Origin: an uncultured Acidobacteriota bacterium
GTDB taxonomy: Bacteria; Acidobacteriota; Vicinamibacteria; Fen-336
Direction: 5' to 3'
Length of the DNA: 64,000 nt
Assembly: GCA_963720545.1 (NCBI GenBank)
Contig: OY970399.1
Location: 2,752,001 to 2,816,000, forward strand
The position numbers were made by a program, and so were the translations under genes. Under the pieces are notes generated by a model. The model saw nothing but the letters and a program-made list of their open reading frames with translations, had not been told where the DNA came from and ran no database searches. Shown piece by piece: positions 21,497 to 59,649 of the stretch (within the stretch, counting starts at the first letter, position 1; each line of letters begins with the position of its first letter).

Positions 21497-24025
21497 ATGC
21501 GCTACCTTGCGGTTCTCCTGGCCCTCGTCCTCGCTCCCGCCGCTTCGGCCGCGGCACCGCGCGAACGGGTGCTGAAGCAGATCGCCGTGCCGCATCATTA
21601 TTACTACCGGGAGATGTACCTGCCGCAGGCGACCAGCGGCCCGAACGCAGTCGCGTGGTTTCCCGACGGCCAGTCGGTCGTGGTCGCGATGCAGGGTTCG
21701 CTGTGGCGCCACACCCTGAGCAGCGAGGCGGCGACGCAGCTGACCGACGGCCCCGGCTACGACAACCAGCCGGACGTCTCGCCCGACGGCCGGTTCGTCG
21801 CGTACTCGTCCTACCGCGGGGACGCCATCGACCTGCTGCTGCTCGACGTCGCGAGCGGCGCCACGAGCGTGCTGGTGAAGAACGGCGCGGTCAACGTCGA
21901 GCCGCGCTTTTCGCCGGACGGCAAGCGCATCGCATTCGTGTCCACCGTCTTCAACGCGCGCTGGCACGTGTTCACGCTCGCGCTCGATGCCAAAGGCGCC
22001 GCGGCCGGCGAGCCGCGGCGGATCACGAACGACAGCGAGACCGACCAGCGCTACTACTACAGCAAGTGGGACCACTTCCTGTCGCCGGTGTGGTCGCCGG
22101 ACGGCAGCGAGCTGATCCTGGTGGGCAACCACGGCCATGTCTGGGGCACGGGCGGCTTCTGGCGCATGCAAGCCGAACCGGGCGCCGCGGCGCGCGAGCT
22201 GCACTACGAGGAGACCAACTGGAAGGCGCGGCCCGACTGGTCGCCGGACGGCAAGCGCGTCGTCTATTCGTCGTATCTCGGCCGGCAATGGAACCAGCTA
22301 TGGCTGATGCCCGCTGCCGGTGGCGATGCCCTGCAGCTGACTTACGGCGAGTTCGACAACGTCGCGCCGCGCTGGTCCAAGGACGGCCGGCAGATCGCCT
22401 ACATCACCAACGAGGGCGGCAACACCGCGCTGCGCATCCTCGCCTTTCCGGGTGGCGCCGTCAGCCGGCCGCGGTTTCGCCACAAGAACTACAAGAACCC
22501 CGGCGCGCAGCTCGCCATCACCGTGACGGACGGCGCGCGCCCGGTGCCCGCGCGCATCTCGGTCACCGCAGCCGACGGCCGCGGCTACACGCCCGACGAC
22601 ACATGGCGGCATGCCGACGACGCCTACGTGCGCGGCGCGCGCGCGTTCGAGTATTCCTACTTCCACACCAGCGGCCGCGCGTCGCTGCGCGTGCCGGCCG
22701 GCTCCGAGCTGACGATCGAGGTGAGCCGCGGCCCCGAGTACGCAGTGCATACGCAGAAGCTGACGCTTGCCGCGGGCGCTTCACAGCGCCTCGCCGTGCC
22801 GCTGCGGCGCATCGACGACCTGCCGAAGAAGGGCTGGTGGAGCGGCGACGGCCACGTGCACATGAACTATGGTGGCGCCTATCGCAACGACCCGGCGCAC
22901 CTGGTGACGCAGATGCAGGCCGAAGACCTGCACCTCGTCGAGAACCTGGTGGTGAACAAGGAAGGGCGCATTCCAGACATCTCCTACTTCCGCCCCACCC
23001 CAGACCCGGCCTCGCGCCCCGGCTTCCTGCTGGCGCACGGGCAGGAGTTCCACACGAGCTTCTGGGGCCACACCGGGCTCCTCGGCCAGTCCGATCATTT
23101 CCTGCTGCCGGACTACGCGGGCTACGCCGGCACCGCAGCCGCGAGCCTCATTCCCATGAACTTCGACGTCGCCGACATGGCGCGCGCGCAAGGCGGCATC
23201 ATCGGCTACGTTCATCCATGGGACTACTATCCCGATCCCGCGAAGCGCGACGAGGCGCTCACCAACGAGCTGCCGGTGGACGCGGCGCTCGGCAAGGTGG
23301 ACTACTACGAGGTCGTCGGCTTCATCGACGACTATCTCGCGAACTCGAAGGTCTGGTACCAGCTCCTCAACTGCGGCTTCCGCATTCCCGCGGGCGCCGG
23401 CACCGACGCGATGGCGAACTACTCCTCGCTGCGCGGCCCGGTCGGCATGAACCGGGTGTTCGTGAAGGCCGGCCTGAAGCTCGAGCACGGCGCATGGCTG
23501 GCCGGGCTCAAGGCGGGCCGAACCTTCGCGACCAATGGGCCGCTGCTGTCGCTCGCCATCGACGGCAAGGAACCGGGCGCCGAGATCAAGCTACCGGCGG
23601 GCTCGCACACGCTGCACGCCGCCATGACGATGAAGTCGTACGTGCCGGTGACGAACGTCGAGCTGGTGCGAAATGGCGAAGTCATGGCCACGGCGAAGCT
23701 CGCGGCCGATGGCCGCTCGGCCAGCGGCAGCGCCGCGCTCGAGGTCAAGGAGAGCGGCTGGTACGTGCTGCGCGCCTGGAGCAAGGAGCCGCAGTATCCG
23801 GTGCTCGACGTCTACCCGTTCGCGAGCACCAGCCCCATCTACGTCACGGTGGGCGACGATCCGGTGCGCTCCGCGCGCGATGCGGCTTACTTCATCGCCT
23901 GGATCGACCGCGTCGCCGAGGCGGCGGGCAAGCACGACGGATGGGCCAGCGACGCGGAGCGCGCCACCGCGATGGAGCGGATCGCGGCGGCGCGCAAAGT
24001 CTTCACGGAGCGCGCTCAGGACTGA
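21497..24025 (+). CDS. Exported TolB-like (PD40) beta-propeller + CehA/McbA-type metallohydrolase
   Basis: Signal peptide; repeated P.WSPDG units; GDGHVH, GQEF...GH, YVHP, GTDA, GRTFATNGP. Confidence 0.85.
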   Translation: MRYLAVLLALVLAPAASAAAPRERVLKQIAVPHHYYYREMYLPQATSGPNAVAWFPDGQSVVVAMQGSLWRHTLSSEAATQLTDGPGYDNQPDVSPDGRFVAYSSYRGDAIDLLLLDVASGATSVLVKNGAVNVEPRFSPDGKRIAFVSTVFNARWHVFTLALDAKGAAAGEPRRITNDSETDQRYYYSKWDHFLSPVWSPDGSELILVGNHGHVWGTGGFWRMQAEPGAAARELHYEETNWKARPDWSPDGKRVVYSSYLGRQWNQLWLMPAAGGDALQLTYGEFDNVAPRWSKDGRQIAYITNEGGNTALRILAFPGGAVSRPRFRHKNYKNPGAQLAITVTDGARPVPARISVTAADGRGYTPDDTWRHADDAYVRGARAFEYSYFHTSGRASLRVPAGSELTIEVSRGPEYAVHTQKLTLAAGASQRLAVPLRRIDDLPKKGWWSGDGHVHMNYGGAYRNDPAHLVTQMQAEDLHLVENLVVNKEGRIPDISYFRPTPDPASRPGFLLAHGQEFHTSFWGHTGLLGQSDHFLLPDYAGYAGTAAASLIPMNFDVADMARAQGGIIGYVHPWDYYPDPAKRDEALTNELPVDAALGKVDYYEVVGFIDDYLANSKVWYQLLNCGFRIPAGAGTDAMANYSSLRGPVGMNRVFVKAGLKLEHGAWLAGLKAGRTFATNGPLLSLAIDGKEPGAEIKLPAGSHTLHAAMTMKSYVPVTNVELVRNGEVMATAKLAADGRSASGSAALEVKESGWYVLRAWSKEPQYPVLDVYPFASTSPIYVTVGDDPVRSARDAAYFIAWIDRVAEAAGKHDGWASDAERATAMERIAAARKVFTERAQD

Positions 24026-25152
24026 GCGAGCGCCGCCAGCAGGTCGTCGGCCAGGTCCTGCGGGTCCTCGATGCCGACCGAGACGCGCACCAGGTCGGGC
24101 GGCGGCGCGAGCCGGGCGCGCAGTGCTCCCGGAATGCTCGCGTGCGACATCGCGCTCGGCAGCGAGATCGACGAAGTGACCGAACCAAAGCTCACGGCAA
24201 TGGCGAAGAGGCGCACGCCCTCGACCACCCGCCGCGAACGCTCCGCGTTGCCGGTGGTGAAGCTGAACACCGAGCCGGGGCCACGCGCCTGCGACTCGTG
24301 CAGCGCCCGTGCGGCGGATGAGGCGAGTGTCGGGTAGTACACCGTGCCCACTGCCTGTTGCTCGAGGACCCGGTTGGCCAGCAGCTCCGCGGTCTGGCTC
24401 TGGCGCGCGACCCGGAGGTCGAGCGTCTTCAGCCCGCGCAACAGCAGCCAGCAGTCGAAGGGCGCGAGCCCTGTGCCCTCGGCGTTGCGCAGGAACGCAA
24501 GCCGCTCGCGCAGCGCCTCGTCGTTGGTGACCACGGCCCCCGCGCTGATGTCGCCGTGCCCGCACAACGACTTGGTCGCGGAGTAGAGCACCAGGTGGGC
24601 GCCGAGCGCCAGCGGCCGCTGCAAGCGTGGCGAGAGCAGCGAGTTGTCCACCGCCAGCAGCACGCCGCGCGTGCTCGCGAGCGATGCCAGCCCGGCGAGG
24701 TCGGCGATGCGCAACAGCGGATTGCTCGGCGTCTCGGCGACGAGGAGCCGCGTGTTCGGGCCGATCGCGGCCGCGACCGCGTCGAGATCGGTCATGTCCA
24801 CGTAGCGCACGCCAATGCCGAGGCCGGGAGCGACGCGCGCCAGGAGGCGCGTGGTGCCGCCGTAGAGGTCGTCGCCGGCGAGGATCTCGCCACCCGCAGC
24901 GACCAGGCGAGTCACGGCCGCGATCGCCGCCATGCCGCTCGTGTAGCTGAGCGCGTAGCGCGCCTTCTCGAGCGCGGCCAGCTGCTCCTCCACCTGCGTG
25001 CGCGTCGGGTTGGCGGTGCGGGTGTAGTCGTACTCGCCGAATTCCAGCGCTCCCGGCTGGCGGAAGGCCGCGGTCTGGTAGAGCGGCGGCGTCAGGGCGC
25101 CGTAGGGGTCGCCGTTCTTTGCAAGCGCAACACAGCGGGTGGCGAACTTCAC
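24016..25152 (-). CDS. Trans-sulfuration enzyme, cystathionine beta-lyase-like
   Basis: PPLYQTA, YDYTRTANPTR, DDLYGGT, ETPSNP, SATKSLCGH, VSFGSV.S, RVSVGIED. Confidence 0.9.
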   Translation of the reverse strand: MKFATRCVALAKNGDPYGALTPPLYQTAAFRQPGALEFGEYDYTRTANPTRTQVEEQLAALEKARYALSYTSGMAAIAAVTRLVAAGGEILAGDDLYGGTTRLLARVAPGLGIGVRYVDMTDLDAVAAAIGPNTRLLVAETPSNPLLRIADLAGLASLASTRGVLLAVDNSLLSPRLQRPLALGAHLVLYSATKSLCGHGDISAGAVVTNDEALRERLAFLRNAEGTGLAPFDCWLLLRGLKTLDLRVARQSQTAELLANRVLEQQAVGTVYYPTLASSAARALHESQARGPGSVFSFTTGNAERSRRVVEGVRLFAIAVSFGSVTSSISLPSAMSHASIPGALRARLAPPPDLVRVSVGIEDPQDLADDLLAALAQS

Positions 25153-25916
25153 GCGGCACCGCCTGCCGCTGCGTCCGCGGCCAGTGGCGCGGTACGGTCC
25201 GGCCCGCGGCCGACGAGAGTACGGTTGCCGGACGCGAGGGCCGCGATCTCGAATTCGAGAAAAGCCGCGCCGGCGAAGCGCACCGCCTTCGATTGCACGA
25301 CACGGGTGCCGACACGCAGCGCCGTGCCCCAGGTCGCGGTGTGATAGCGGCTCGCGGTCGCGTCGGTCGCGGGGTCGCCGCTGTACAAGCCGTCCACATC
25401 CTTGATGAGCCGGCAGCGCGCGCCGAGCGTGTGGGCGAGGAACAGCGCTGTGAGGTCGGAGCCGCCCCGGCCGAGCACGGTGGTGCGGCCGTCGCGGTCG
25501 CGCGCCACGAAGCCGGGCACGACCACCACGCCGGCAGCGAGCGCCTTGCGGATCGCTGCGGCGTTGACCGCGACCGCCTGGCCGTCGAGGAAGTCGCCTT
25601 CGCTGACGAGCCCGAGCTGCGCGGAATCGAAGAGGGTCGCCACCATGCCCGCTTCGGCCAGGGCCAGCGTGAGGAGCGCCGCGGCCGTGGCCTCCCCGGT
25701 CGCGAGAAGTGCCGCGAGCGCCTGCGGCTGCGGTGGCAGCCCGAGTTGTTGCGCGCGTTTCAGCAGGTCGTCTGTGACACCCCGGAACGCCGAAACCACT
25801 GCCAGCACCACAGCGCCGGCGACGCGCTCACGCACGATCTCCCGCACCACAGCGGGCAAGTCCCGCTCCGAGCGCAGCACCGAGCTGCCGAATTTCAGCA
25901 CCACGATGCGCGTCAT
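25149..25916 (-). CDS. Aspartokinase-like amino-acid kinase (catalytic domain only)
   Basis: VLKFGSS, VVSA, TDDL, GE, LGRGGSDLTA, KDVDGLY..DP; no ACT domain. Confidence 0.85.
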   Translation of the reverse strand: MTRIVVLKFGSSVLRSERDLPAVVREIVRERVAGAVVLAVVSAFRGVTDDLLKRAQQLGLPPQPQALAALLATGEATAAALLTLALAEAGMVATLFDSAQLGLVSEGDFLDGQAVAVNAAAIRKALAAGVVVVPGFVARDRDGRTTVLGRGGSDLTALFLAHTLGARCRLIKDVDGLYSGDPATDATASRYHTATWGTALRVGTRVVQSKAVRFAGAAFLEFEIAALASGNRTLVGRGPDRTAPLAADAAAGGAA

Positions 25917-27091
25917 GACTGGAGCGCCTGGCGCAAGTCGGCGATCACGTCCTGCGGATCCTCGAGGCCGACCGAGACGCGGATCAGGCCTTCGGTGATG
26001 CCGGTGGCTTCGCGCTGCCGCAGCGGCACGGCGCCGTGGGTCATCGACACCGGATGGGTGACGATGGTCTCGGCCGCGCCCAGGTTCTCGGCGAGCGCGC
26101 ACAGCCGCACGCCGTTCATCACCGCGATGCCGGCCGCGGCGCCGCCCTCGACCTCGAACGCCAGCACCGCGCCGCCGCTGCGCTGCTGCCGCAGGGCGAG
26201 CTCGCGCTGCGGGAACGAGTCGAGTCCGGGATAGAGGATGCGGGTCACGCGCGGGTGCGCCTCGAGGAAGCGCGCCACCTCGAGCGCGTTGGCCGCGTGC
26301 TGGCGCATGCGCAGCGGCAGCGTCTTGGCGCCCTGCAGCGTCAGCCACGCGTTCCACGGCGACTGGATGGCGCCGATGCAGTTGCGCAGCAGGAACAGCC
26401 GCTCGTGCAGCGCGGCGTCGCGCGTGAGGAGCGCCCCGCCGACGGTCGCGTTGTGGCCCTCGATGAACTTGGTGGTCGAGTGCAGCACGATGTCGGCGCC
26501 GAGGTCGAGCGGCCGCTGCAGCACCGGCGTCAACAGCGTGTTGTCGACGACCACCACGGCGCCCGCCGCGTGTCCCAGCCGCGCGGCCAGCTCGATGTCG
26601 GTGAGCTTGAGCGTCGGGTTCGCGGGCGATTCGAGGAACAACAGGGCGGCGCCGCCGCGCAGCGACCCGGCCAGCGCCGCGGGGTCGGAGGCGTCCACGA
26701 ACACGGCGTCGACGCCGAACTTCGACAGCACCTGCTGGAACAGGCGCACGGTGCCGCCGTAGGTGACGTCGCCGATGACGGCGCGCGCGCCTTTTTCGAG
26801 CAGCGCGAGCGCCAGCGCGGTGGTGGCGCCGAGGCCGGTGCCGAAGGCGGTGCAGTGCGCGGCGTTCTCGAGCGCGGCGAGGCGACGCTCGAGCGCCGCG
26901 ACCGTCGGGTTCGACTGGCGGCTGTAGGTGTAGCCCTTGTGGACCCCGACCGCCTCCTGCACGTAGGTGGTCGATTGATAGATCGGGGTCAGCAGCGCGC
27001 CGGTCACCGGATCCGGCGCGGTGCCGGCGTGCAGCGCCACGGTTTCGATGCCTGTCGCCAGGCCCTCTGTCACGGGTGCGGTTGCGGTCAT
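25913..27091 (-). CDS. metB: Trans-sulfuration enzyme, cystathionine gamma-synthase-like
   Basis: TPIYQSTTY, YSRQSNPT, YGGT, ESPANP, HSTTKFIEGH, AENLG, HPVSMTH, RVSVGLED. Confidence 0.85.
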   Translation of the reverse strand: MTATAPVTEGLATGIETVALHAGTAPDPVTGALLTPIYQSTTYVQEAVGVHKGYTYSRQSNPTVAALERRLAALENAAHCTAFGTGLGATTALALALLEKGARAVIGDVTYGGTVRLFQQVLSKFGVDAVFVDASDPAALAGSLRGGAALLFLESPANPTLKLTDIELAARLGHAAGAVVVVDNTLLTPVLQRPLDLGADIVLHSTTKFIEGHNATVGGALLTRDAALHERLFLLRNCIGAIQSPWNAWLTLQGAKTLPLRMRQHAANALEVARFLEAHPRVTRILYPGLDSFPQRELALRQQRSGGAVLAFEVEGGAAAGIAVMNGVRLCALAENLGAAETIVTHPVSMTHGAVPLRQREATGITEGLIRVSVGLEDPQDVIADLRQALQS

Positions 27092-27122
27092 TGCAGGCGT
27101 CCTTTCGGGGCGGGTCGCGCCC

Positions 27123-27167
27123 AAAAAACAAAAAAGCCACCGCGGGGAGATCCCCAGGCGGTGGCTT
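27123..27167 (-). terminator. Attenuator terminator upstream of the met operon
   Basis: - strand AAGCCACCGC-CT-GGGG-ATCT-CCCC-GCGGTGGCTT then TTTTGTTTTTT, about 30 nt before the metB-like ATG. Confidence 0.88.
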
Positions 27168-27195
27168 CTTGGTGTCGTTACGATCCGGGTTCTGA

Positions 27196-27318
27196 CTAGA
27201 GCGTCTCGAACCTCGTCTCAGCGAACACGCCGCCGCCCGACGGACCGATGGGAATGCGCATCCACATGTGCATCGTGGTGGCCATCGAAACGGCGTTGGT
27301 GGTGGCGTTGCGGTTCAT
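27196..27318 (-). CDS. Putative attenuator leader peptide (40 aa, Met/Thr/Ile-rich)
   Basis: MNRNATTNAVSMATTMHMWMRIPIGPSGGGVFAETRFETL*; AGGAG upstream; directly followed by terminator. Confidence 0.8.
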   Translation of the reverse strand: MNRNATTNAVSMATTMHMWMRIPIGPSGGGVFAETRFETL

Positions 27319-27329
27319 CTGAGGCTCCT

Positions 27330-27359
27330 AAGCTAACGTCCGGCTCGCGCTCGTGTCAA
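27330..27359 (-). promoter_or_regulatory. Putative sigma70 promoter of the leader/met operon
   Basis: TTGACA(27359-54)-N18-TAGCTT(27335-30). Confidence 0.55.
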
Positions 27360-27396
27360 ACCGCGCCCCGCTCCGGTGTTAACGTGCGGCCAAACC

Positions 27397-29157
27397 ATGA
27401 GCATTGCGAAAGCCGCAACCGCACTTGCCGCCGCATTTCTTGCCACCGCCGCCGCAGCCGCCCAGCCGGGTCCGCCCACGCACTCGTCGCAGCTCGTCGC
27501 TTTGGTCGGAACCGACTATCTCGAGCACAACAAGGCGACGGACATCTCGCTGCAGATGAAGTTCGGGCTTCCGACCCTGCGATTGCCCGACGTGAGCCTC
27601 GCCGAAGAAGAGCGCGAAGCCGAATGGGCGAAGGCGCAGCTCGCCCGCCTCGAGGCGGCGAAGACAGCGGAGCTCAGCCACGGCGAGACGCTGTCGCTCG
27701 ACATCCTGCGCCGCCAGCTGCAGTTTCGCGTCGATGCGCCGCGGTTCTACTGGCTGAGCTTCGCCGTGACCCCTTACAACTCGCCGATCGGCACGGTCAA
27801 TCGTCTGTTCGAGACGCTGCCGCTGCCGGATGCCGCGGCGGCCGAGCGCTACGCCGCGCTCGTCAGGCAGCTGCCGGCTTTCTTCGATGCCCTGCGTGCC
27901 AAAGTCGAGGGCCAGGCGCAGCGCGGCATCCACCTGCCGCAGCCGGAAGTGGACGTGGTCGCCGGCTTCATGCGCTCGCTCGGCGGCAGCGGCGCCCAAA
28001 GCCCGTATGCCGTGAAGCCCGCGCGCCTCGCGTCGCTGCCGAGAGAGGCCGCCGCGCAGTTGACGAGTACGGTGGACGCGGCCGTCGCCAACGACATCAA
28101 CCCGCGGCTCGCCGCGTTCGCGGCGTATCTCGCGGGCGAGTACCGGAAGAAGGCCCCGGAGGCCGTCGGCGTAGGCCAGTATCCGGGCGGCCAGGAGTAC
28201 TACGCGTGGCTCGTGAAGTGGTACACGACCATGGAAGTGACGCCGCAGCAGGTGCACGACACCGGGGTGTCGCGCGTCTCTGCCATCGAGGCCGAGATGG
28301 CGAGGGTGCGCGAGCGGCTCGGCTTCAAGGGCACGGCCGCGCAGTTCCGCGCGAGCCTCAAGGCGAACCCGCGGTTCTTCCCGCGCACGCCCGACGAGAT
28401 CGGCGCGACGCTCATGGGCCACGTGCGGCGCATCGAGCCGCACCTCGACGCGTTCTTCCTCAGCAAACCGAAGGCACCCTACGGCGTGCGCCGCCTGCAG
28501 CCCGAACTCGAGGCCAGCCAGACGTTCGGCGCCTACAACCCGCCGACCGCCAGCGAGCCCGGCGGCTACTACTATTTCAACGGCTCGAATCTCAAGGAAC
28601 GCTCGCTGCTGAACGCCGCTGCGCTCACCTATCACGAGCTGGCTCCCGGGCATCACTTCCAGATCGCGAGCACCTACGAGAACCCCGACATCCCGCCGTT
28701 CCAGCGCGAGACCTATGACGTCGCCTACACCGAGGGCTGGGGCGAGTACGCGTCGATGCTCGCCGGCGAGATGGGCATGTACGAGGATCCCTACGACCTC
28801 TATGGCCGCCTCTCGATGGAAATGTTCATCGCGGTGCGCCTGGTGGTGGACACCGGCATGAACGCCTTTGGCTGGCCGCGCACCCGGGCCGTCGCCTACA
28901 TGCGCGAGCGCGAGATGGAGACGGACACCCAGATCGCGAGCGAGTCGCTGCGCTACTCGTGCGACATCCCGGGCCAGGCGCTCGGCTACAAGATGGGCGC
29001 CATCAGGATCCTCGAGTTGCGCGAAAAGGCCCGCAAGGCGCTGGGGCGCGACTTCGACATCCGCCGCTTCCACGCGGCGGTCCTCGGCAGCGGCTCGCTG
29101 CCCATGACAACGCTGGAGCGCCATATCGACTGGTTCATCGAGGAGGCAGCCAAATGA
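27397..29157 (+). CDS. Exported DUF885-family protein (putative metallopeptidase)
   Basis: Signal peptide; HELAPGHHFQ, AYTEGWGEY, RLVVDTG, PGQALGYKMG. Confidence 0.92.
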   Translation: MSIAKAATALAAAFLATAAAAAQPGPPTHSSQLVALVGTDYLEHNKATDISLQMKFGLPTLRLPDVSLAEEEREAEWAKAQLARLEAAKTAELSHGETLSLDILRRQLQFRVDAPRFYWLSFAVTPYNSPIGTVNRLFETLPLPDAAAAERYAALVRQLPAFFDALRAKVEGQAQRGIHLPQPEVDVVAGFMRSLGGSGAQSPYAVKPARLASLPREAAAQLTSTVDAAVANDINPRLAAFAAYLAGEYRKKAPEAVGVGQYPGGQEYYAWLVKWYTTMEVTPQQVHDTGVSRVSAIEAEMARVRERLGFKGTAAQFRASLKANPRFFPRTPDEIGATLMGHVRRIEPHLDAFFLSKPKAPYGVRRLQPELEASQTFGAYNPPTASEPGGYYYFNGSNLKERSLLNAAALTYHELAPGHHFQIASTYENPDIPPFQRETYDVAYTEGWGEYASMLAGEMGMYEDPYDLYGRLSMEMFIAVRLVVDTGMNAFGWPRTRAVAYMREREMETDTQIASESLRYSCDIPGQALGYKMGAIRILELREKARKALGRDFDIRRFHAAVLGSGSLPMTTLERHIDWFIEEAAK

Positions 29158-59572: not shown

Positions 59573-59649
59573 GGCGGTGTAGCTCAGTTGGTTAGAGCAC
59601 GCGGCTCATATCCGCGGAGTCCGGGGTTCAAGTCCCTGCACCGCCACCA
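59573..59649 (+). tRNA. tRNA with CAT anticodon, probably elongator tRNA-Met
   Basis: Acceptor GGCGGTG/CACCGCC, D arm GCTC/GAGC, anticodon arm CGCGG-CTCATAT-CCGCG, T loop TTCAAGT, encoded CCA. Confidence 0.95.

Follow-up and report, generated by a model that had tools for sequence, protein, structure and literature searches.

A conserved leader, probably a methionine-dedicated attenuator, upstream of metB-like operons in Acidobacteriota

The window analysed here, a 64,000-nucleotide stretch of DNA from an uncultured Acidobacteriota bacterium, carries on its minus strand three genes that overlap one another, preceded by a leader region with the following parts.

24016..25152, minus strand: Cys/Met PLP enzyme, metC-like (best NCBIfam match cystathionine beta-lyase, under its cut-off)
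25149..25916, minus strand: stand-alone aspartate-kinase catalytic domain of 255 aa (profile match)
25913..27091, minus strand: Cys/Met PLP enzyme, metB-like (best NCBIfam match cystathionine gamma-synthase, under its cut-off)
27091, minus strand: ATG start codon of the metB-like gene
27100..27105, minus strand: AAAGGA, from its sequence the likely Shine-Dalgarno of the metB-like gene
27123..27165, minus strand: intrinsic terminator (GC stem 27165-27136, U tail 27135-27123)
27149..27246, minus strand: predicted antiterminator, in which 27246-27222 pairs with 27177-27149
27231..27295, minus strand: predicted protector (anti-antiterminator) hairpin, in which 27295-27280 pairs with 27246-27231, with Met12 inside
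27196..27318, minus strand: leader ORF of 40 codons, candidate metL, of a type conserved in orthologues
27247..27255, minus strand: Ile22 (ATT) and Ile24 (ATC), aligned with the last two ATG columns of the family
27259..27285, minus strand: Met control codons 12, 16, 18 and 20 (at 27285, 27273, 27267 and 27261; M-x-M-x-M in the family)
27325..27329, minus strand: AGGAG
27330..27335, minus strand: -10-like box TAGCTT, separated by an 18-nt spacer from TTGACA
27354..27359, minus strand: -35 box of the sigma-70 type, TTGACA

The initial annotation of this DNA had listed the promoter motif, the 40-codon ORF with its four Met codons, the terminator and the metB-like ATG, and all are present where it placed them; the pairing of 27237-27229 with 27165-27157 that it proposed also exists, as part of the longer predicted antiterminator given above. 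The start of a divergent DUF885 gene (window positions 27376-29157, plus strand) and the -35 box of the leader promoter are some 40 nt apart.

The metB-like, aspartate kinase and metC-like genes are likely a methionine-synthesis operon. The nearest solved structures of the metB-like protein are methionine gamma-lyases and its NCBIfam match is below the cut-off, so its activity, like the direction in which the enzymes would work, is judged from context. The middle gene is a fusion of kinase and homoserine dehydrogenase in two of the three relatives scanned, and the third (L043) has a kinase frame that continues into the metC-like gene. The kinase domain of the window has no ACT or dehydrogenase parts, and the fusion of the relatives is also without ACT; the substrate of the window's kinase-domain gene could be either aspartate or homoserine. 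Elsewhere the genome has two genes for homoserine dehydrogenase besides metH and thrB, together with a MetX-like gene whose match is under the cut-off, and neither a MetA-type HTS nor the MetJ repressor (PF01340, for which the E. coli control was positive) was found in the 94.8% complete assembly. Neither metH nor the stand-alone hom gene of the genome showed a leader of the kind described here.

The terminator stem has a folding energy of -23.1 kcal/mol and is followed by a tail with T at 8 of 9 positions, and the fold of the whole leader beats 200 of 200 shuffles (z -3.9). Internal Met occupies 4 of 39 codons of the leader ORF (p=7e-4 when the background is set, leniently, at the 1% Met of the MetB proteins). 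Three-Met clusters are held by 48 of the 14,465 short ATG ORFs of the genome, and a terminator-like hairpin follows two of these 48 (the leader ORF at -29.4 kcal/mol, the other at -10.4), so that the leader ORF is the only one with a strong terminator downstream. Another Met-cluster ORF of the genome (C1:2262754-2262638) is antisense within a gene and was rejected as a candidate. A genome search for further copies of the leader gave none, the next best match having E 0.024, and the leader peptide matched no Pfam or NCBIfam family. A simple consensus scanner listed neither the leader promoter, whose -10 box agrees at 3 of 6 positions, nor the terminator, which contains an internal loop.

We collected metB-like loci from 41 related genomes (30 loci), from a species-level genome collection (best 80 of 375) and from metagenomes (best 80 of 364), and divided them by MetB identity, independently of the leader, with 56% or more taken as orthologous. 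Loci with at least 250 nt upstream were scored for a uORF that ends 40-320 nt before the match and contains M-x-M-x-M or a near form; 19 loci with short flanks (4 of them positive) were left out. A Met-type uORF lies before the metB-like gene at 43 of 45 genome orthologue loci (best-ranked loci, that of the window included; 39 of the 45 have the three-Met form) and at 28 of 31 metagenome orthologue loci (from the best 80 of 364), as against 9 of 60 distant genome homologues (<56%), all in one genus, and none of 35 distant metagenome homologues. The Met-rich uORF that the initial annotation suggested looking for in relatives is thus kept with the orthologous gene. These loci share kinship and are not independent samples, and those carried forward were picked by their Met pattern, so that Met enrichment among them is circular and the contrast between orthologues and paralogues is the non-circular result. 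Some metagenome loci duplicate genome loci; clustering the 84 positives at 90% identity leaves 40, of which 39 were analysed after motif-anchored picking of the terminator (L161, with no anchor, was omitted). The start codon of the leader frame is ATG in 38 of these 39.

Five orthologue loci fall outside the uORF pattern (L117, L156, L002, L155 and L043). L117 has a three-Met leader with a spacing variant, and L156 a two-Met leader (M-G-M) further upstream with a terminator present; the M-G-M variant with a terminator is found in both L156 and L201, about 330-400 nt before metB. L201 is a metB leader that had not been seen before and was recovered by an RNA model built from the other leaders. 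The phylum-wide search with this model gave five non-self matches in 150 genomes, one of them before metB, a count that is uninformative on prevalence since 22 candidates were scored per genome. A weak match at L204:1450-1700 has an M-R-M-H stretch a short distance ahead of the start of a gene, with no metB nearby. No such leader was found at 17 homologues of family f66, which are 52-55% identical.

The named carriers are mostly Acidobacteriota (Terriglobia and Thermoanaerobaculia), with one Planctomycetota and one Verrucomicrobiia label. Within the window's own family the orthologue is present in only 2 of 58 genomes (from a 250-genome sample of the class), both with a riboswitch-like RNA, and the MetB of the window groups with Thermoanaerobaculia sequences. 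Loci with the leader and loci with riboswitch-like RNAs are interleaved in a FastTree tree of 86 selected proteins, a midpoint-rooted tree that does not address donor or order. The genus g27 (nine loci: L015, L019, L021, L022, L024, L025, L027, L028 and L029) sits on a distant MetB branch of this tree; here a different Met-rich leader and a U-tailed terminator precede a metB homologue (44-45% identity) and a kinase-dehydrogenase gene, and this leader possibly had a separate origin.

The order of the predicted helices is conserved across the relatives, with protector, antiterminator and terminator following a promoter-like motif and the Met-cluster ORF. In an alignment of 34 distinct sequences of the 39 loci (A1, from which g27, L100 and L116 were omitted as too different), a strand that starts about 4 nt past the last Met pairs with the 5' arm of the terminator. 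In the core of this antiterminator 93.8% of the cells are paired and 5 of 11 pairs show double-sided changes, and the covariation score of the core plus the second helix is above that of 500 of 500 shuffles and of every slid control, comparisons that overstate the effect because the structure was derived from the same, related sequences. The protector helices over the Met codons are 87.1% paired, with double-sided change in 5 of 10 pairs, and so the mutually exclusive antiterminator first proposed for the window is backed by covariation in its family. The terminator helix is conserved in A1 with no significant covariation, in part because two clades align there in different registers. Cognate duplexes of leader and terminator arm beat at least 198 of 200 shuffles at 26 of the 39 loci and beat every arm from other groups at only 9, and in many relatives the terminator tails are weaker (4-6 T of 9). 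An additional pairing of codons 22-23 with the loop side of the terminator is absent from the computed structures. In some Terriglobia loci (e.g. L053, L063 and L088), which have weak U tails, the metB Shine-Dalgarno can pair with a CUCC strand past the leader stop, hinting at an added translational layer; the modelled pairing of the Shine-Dalgarno dropped by more than 0.3 on ribosome stalling in only 3 of the 38 relatives scored, a set that does not contain the window locus.

The effect of a translating ribosome was modelled at the 39 non-redundant loci by masking the RNA through the ninth nucleotide after the A-site codon, on a transcript that stops at the stem. An A site 2-11 codons ahead of the last Met gives a median terminator probability of 0.00-0.05; the median rises to 0.26 one codon ahead of it and to 0.94 on the last Met itself, and stays at 0.91-0.97 further along. 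A cover of 6 or 12 nt moves this boundary one codon either way (about one codon per 3 nt of footprint), so that the first Met is always on the read-through side and all positions from +2 on favour termination. In this model no switch appeared at the three g27 loci. Any stall in the 5' half of the ORF gives antitermination, so that specificity for Met would lie entirely in the codon content.

In the model the switch of the window locus is less clear-cut than that of its family, and near-balanced at equilibrium. Its antiterminator and terminator are within about 0-3.3 kcal/mol of each other for a ribosome at codons 8-24, and at full length with the 9-nt cover the terminator probability is 0.46 at Met12, 0.94 at Met16, 0.42 at Met18 and 0.96 at Met20; it is at least 0.97 from codon 26 on, and the untranslated leader favours the terminator by 7.7 kcal/mol (P 0.99). 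During simulated elongation with the ribosome at Met18, the antiterminator has P=1.0 until the 3' arm of the terminator is nearly complete. Given this near-balance and an antiterminator that forms first, read-through at the window locus would be kinetic. In relatives the Met cluster is 4 codons closer to the antiterminator strand than in the window, and this, together with the strong terminator (-23.1 kcal/mol) that wins at equilibrium at two of the four Met codons, fits a reading in which the family is a Met attenuator and the window copy has drifted into a weak or general sensor of translation speed or a leaky, near-constitutive terminator. We regard such drift as distinctly improbable, since every element is intact, the window has an extra Met (codon 12) in its protector, the antiterminator forms first in transcription, and L157 shares the same 12-nt shift.

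The initial annotation had also allowed for sensing of Thr and Ile. Family-wide this does not hold, as among the 39 loci Thr is missing from the sensing window in 15 and Ile in 29 (Cys and Lys are each missing in 34). For the window leader itself, sensing of Ile and perhaps Thr in addition to Met, in the manner of the multivalent thr and ilv attenuators, draws some support from the aspartate kinase of the operon, a step common to the aspartate family, from Ile22 and Ile24, which are single-base variants of ATG in the last two Met columns of the family, from the modelled switch boundary of this locus near codons 24-25, and from two Thr-Thr pairs within the sensing window. The absences just given stand against it, a count of six Thr among 39 codons is within expectation (p=0.12), and with the ribosome at Ile22 or Ile24 the full-length leader still favours the terminator (0.75-0.98 in 5 of 6 settings); such an addition to Met sensing therefore seems unlikely.

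Some leader peptides, among them TnaC, SpeFL and plant CGS1, arrest the ribosome in response to a ligand. An R-M-x-M-A-M-C-T-x-G-G stretch common to the Terriglobia leaders might be taken to mean that the peptide stalls on a metabolite (SAM, cysteine or homoserine) and not on uncharged tRNA. However, the residues past the cluster change non-synonymously in step with the RNA pairing (Leu/Pro at +3), clades agree with one another at the Met positions alone and differ in the rest of the peptide, and since stalling switches the operon on, the sign is wrong for an end-product ligand. We consider this explanation very improbable.

Methionine biosynthesis is normally controlled by SAM riboswitches or repressors. 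An Rfam search of the whole window at gathering level found only a distant tRNA gene (59573-59646, plus strand) and nothing at the leader, and at E<=10 the leader region gave five weak, unrelated matches with no SAM or T-box family among them, in agreement with the initial expectation that the leader is neither. Nor did Rfam at gathering level find a relevant family at 18 + 18 related loci, and no SAM-I riboswitch was found genome-wide (94.8% complete), where the search for SAM-I/IV had no positive control. RNAs resembling SAM riboswitches do occur at four orthologous loci that have no leader peptide, all four under the Rfam gathering scores. SAM-I/IV-like RNAs (RF01725; gathering 41.1) are found at L002:2063-2199 (minus strand, 30.8 bits) and L205:1325-1453 (plus strand, 37.9 bits); both lie upstream of the metB-kinase operon orthologous to that of the window, in two members of its family. 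A SAM-II-like RNA lies at L155:234-305 (plus strand, 27.6 bits, gathering 36), and a SAM-II-like motif was seen by eye before metB in L043, where Rfam did not list it. Leader-peptide-free orthologues thus carry RNAs of these two types, which ties the operon to Met/SAM status. The same four RNAs could also suggest that the leader is itself an unrecognised SAM-binding riboswitch, or a protein-binding leader, with an incidental ORF; we find this extremely improbable, as no SAM or T-box family is matched even at E<=10, the open ATG-started frame is kept in 38 of 39 loci, and its in-frame ATGs alternate with variable codons. The L155 and L043 RNAs, of the SAM-II (SAM_alpha) type, lie outside the alpha-proteobacteria and are followed by a further hairpin and U tract, and at L033 a motif resembling the SAM-I/IV-like RNA was seen by eye before metB.

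A TTGACA-like box plus a -10 box lies upstream of the uORF at 42 of 53 loci, and the spacing from the -10 box to the ATG is 6-8 nt in 24 of the 53, 9-14 nt in 6, 31-43 nt in 11 and 2 nt in 1. At the window locus 11 nt separate the end of the -10 box from the leader ATG. Sigma-70 promoters start transcription about 7 nt past the -10 box, and on this geometry the start of the leader transcript is predicted near 27323. The AGGAG at 27329-27325, which the initial annotation listed ahead of the ORF, would then be mostly untranscribed and hence is probably not a transcribed Shine-Dalgarno; no Shine-Dalgarno was found in the two relatives with the same 11-nt spacing. From these spacings and relatives the uORF is likely leaderless or near-leaderless.

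Taken from sequence and modelling, the element is most likely a four-segment transcription attenuator in the style of the trp operon with Met control codons, which is predicted to turn the operon on when charged elongator Met-tRNA is short. This largely upholds the tRNA-charging attenuator originally proposed, through the conserved Met-rich uORF, the covarying antiterminator and protector and the absence of a SAM or T-box match at the leader, and the conserved element is probably a dedicated methionine attenuator. The transcript would start a short way ahead of the leader ATG, and ribosomes would need little or no leader to load. When Met is plentiful, the ribosome would pass codon ~24 and melt the antiterminator strand 27246-27222, and the terminator would form. 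When Met is scarce, a stall at codons 12-20 would open the protector and free the antiterminator strand, which would capture the 5' arm of the terminator before the 3' arm is made and so let RNA polymerase read through. With no ribosome the protector would form, making termination the default. Under Met shortage initiation would have to outlast elongation at the Met codons, which the selective-charging theory of Elf (2003) and Dittmar (2005) is said to predict. More broadly, it is somewhat more probable than not that Met attenuators form a widespread uncatalogued class in Acidobacteriota and beyond, in which mostly leaderless Met-x-Met-x-Met uORFs and a full switch precede metB operons, which arose or moved at least twice and swap with two SAM riboswitch classes, and which exploit the different charging of initiator and elongator Met-tRNA, so that an fMet start could go with a stall at internal Met.

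Vitreschak and colleagues (2004) reportedly predicted that the thrA attenuator of Pasteurellales responds to Thr, Ile and Met. There, as here, Met is among the predicted control codons of an aspartate-family operon, but it shares a thr leader with two other signals, whereas in the type found in the window Met is the only conserved signal and the leader precedes metB. The mechanism of the classical attenuators trpL, hisL, leuL, thrL, pheL and ilvL is set out in the accessible parts of PMC2659441 and bioRxiv 10.1101/834739. In its sequence the window leader has the marks of the trpL, hisL and thrL attenuators, namely a short uORF with a cluster of end-product codons, a biosynthetic operon downstream, and protector, antiterminator and U-tailed terminator in the same order; it differs in having Met control codons, in a uORF that is probably leaderless or near-leaderless, and in belonging to an Acidobacteriota-type lineage, and no Rfam or NCBIfam model matches it. 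The nearest case by name is metL of Streptomyces lividans (SLIV_29928), a methionine-dependent leader peptide upstream of metNIQ, which is also leaderless, with Met codons near its end (PMC8079986, accessible part). It lies ahead of a Met importer, carries three Cys besides its two internal Met and has no Rho-independent terminator, and in the accessible part of that paper its function is putative and no conservation analysis is given; the window leader, in contrast, has a complete terminator and antiterminator (the latter covarying in the family) before a biosynthetic operon. The leaderless polycysteine sORF attenuators of mycobacteria (Ms5788A), as described in the accessible part of bioRxiv 10.1101/834739, likewise read a sulfur amino acid through codon runs, but are Cys-specific and act by Shine-Dalgarno sequestration, whereas the window leader would be Met-specific with an intrinsic terminator. 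The SAM-I/IV (RF01725) and SAM-II (RF00521, RF01726) riboswitches have their sub-threshold likenesses at the same position in four orthologous operons (L043 by eye) but bind SAM directly, whereas the window element has no such match and is predicted to need translation. The accessible part of PMC1262725 lists Met under S-box control and reports no conserved RNA structure before actinobacterial met operons. In the literature searched, which excluded most subscription journals and all supplements, we found no description of a Met attenuator on a metB operon, and within the same largely non-subscription literature S. lividans metL (PMC8079986, accessible part) is the only Met leader peptide named.

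Met charges both initiator and elongator tRNAs and is for this reason awkward for attenuation, since a shortage that stalls the ribosome also endangers initiation on the leader (PMC7949028, accessible part). A conserved, complete Met attenuator would be a natural solution to this initiation problem, a question open to a one-reporter test. For the Acidobacteriota, an abundant soil phylum in which the accessible part of PMC2965389 gives almost no predicted attenuator with a function, it would add a regulatory class, and the operon would offer direct cases of exchange between a SAM riboswitch and a tRNA-charging sensor. The leader would also offer a compact Met biosensor, and one of its carriers, Acidobacteriaceae bacterium KBS 83 (L083), is listed as a non-MAG assembly and may serve as a practical host.
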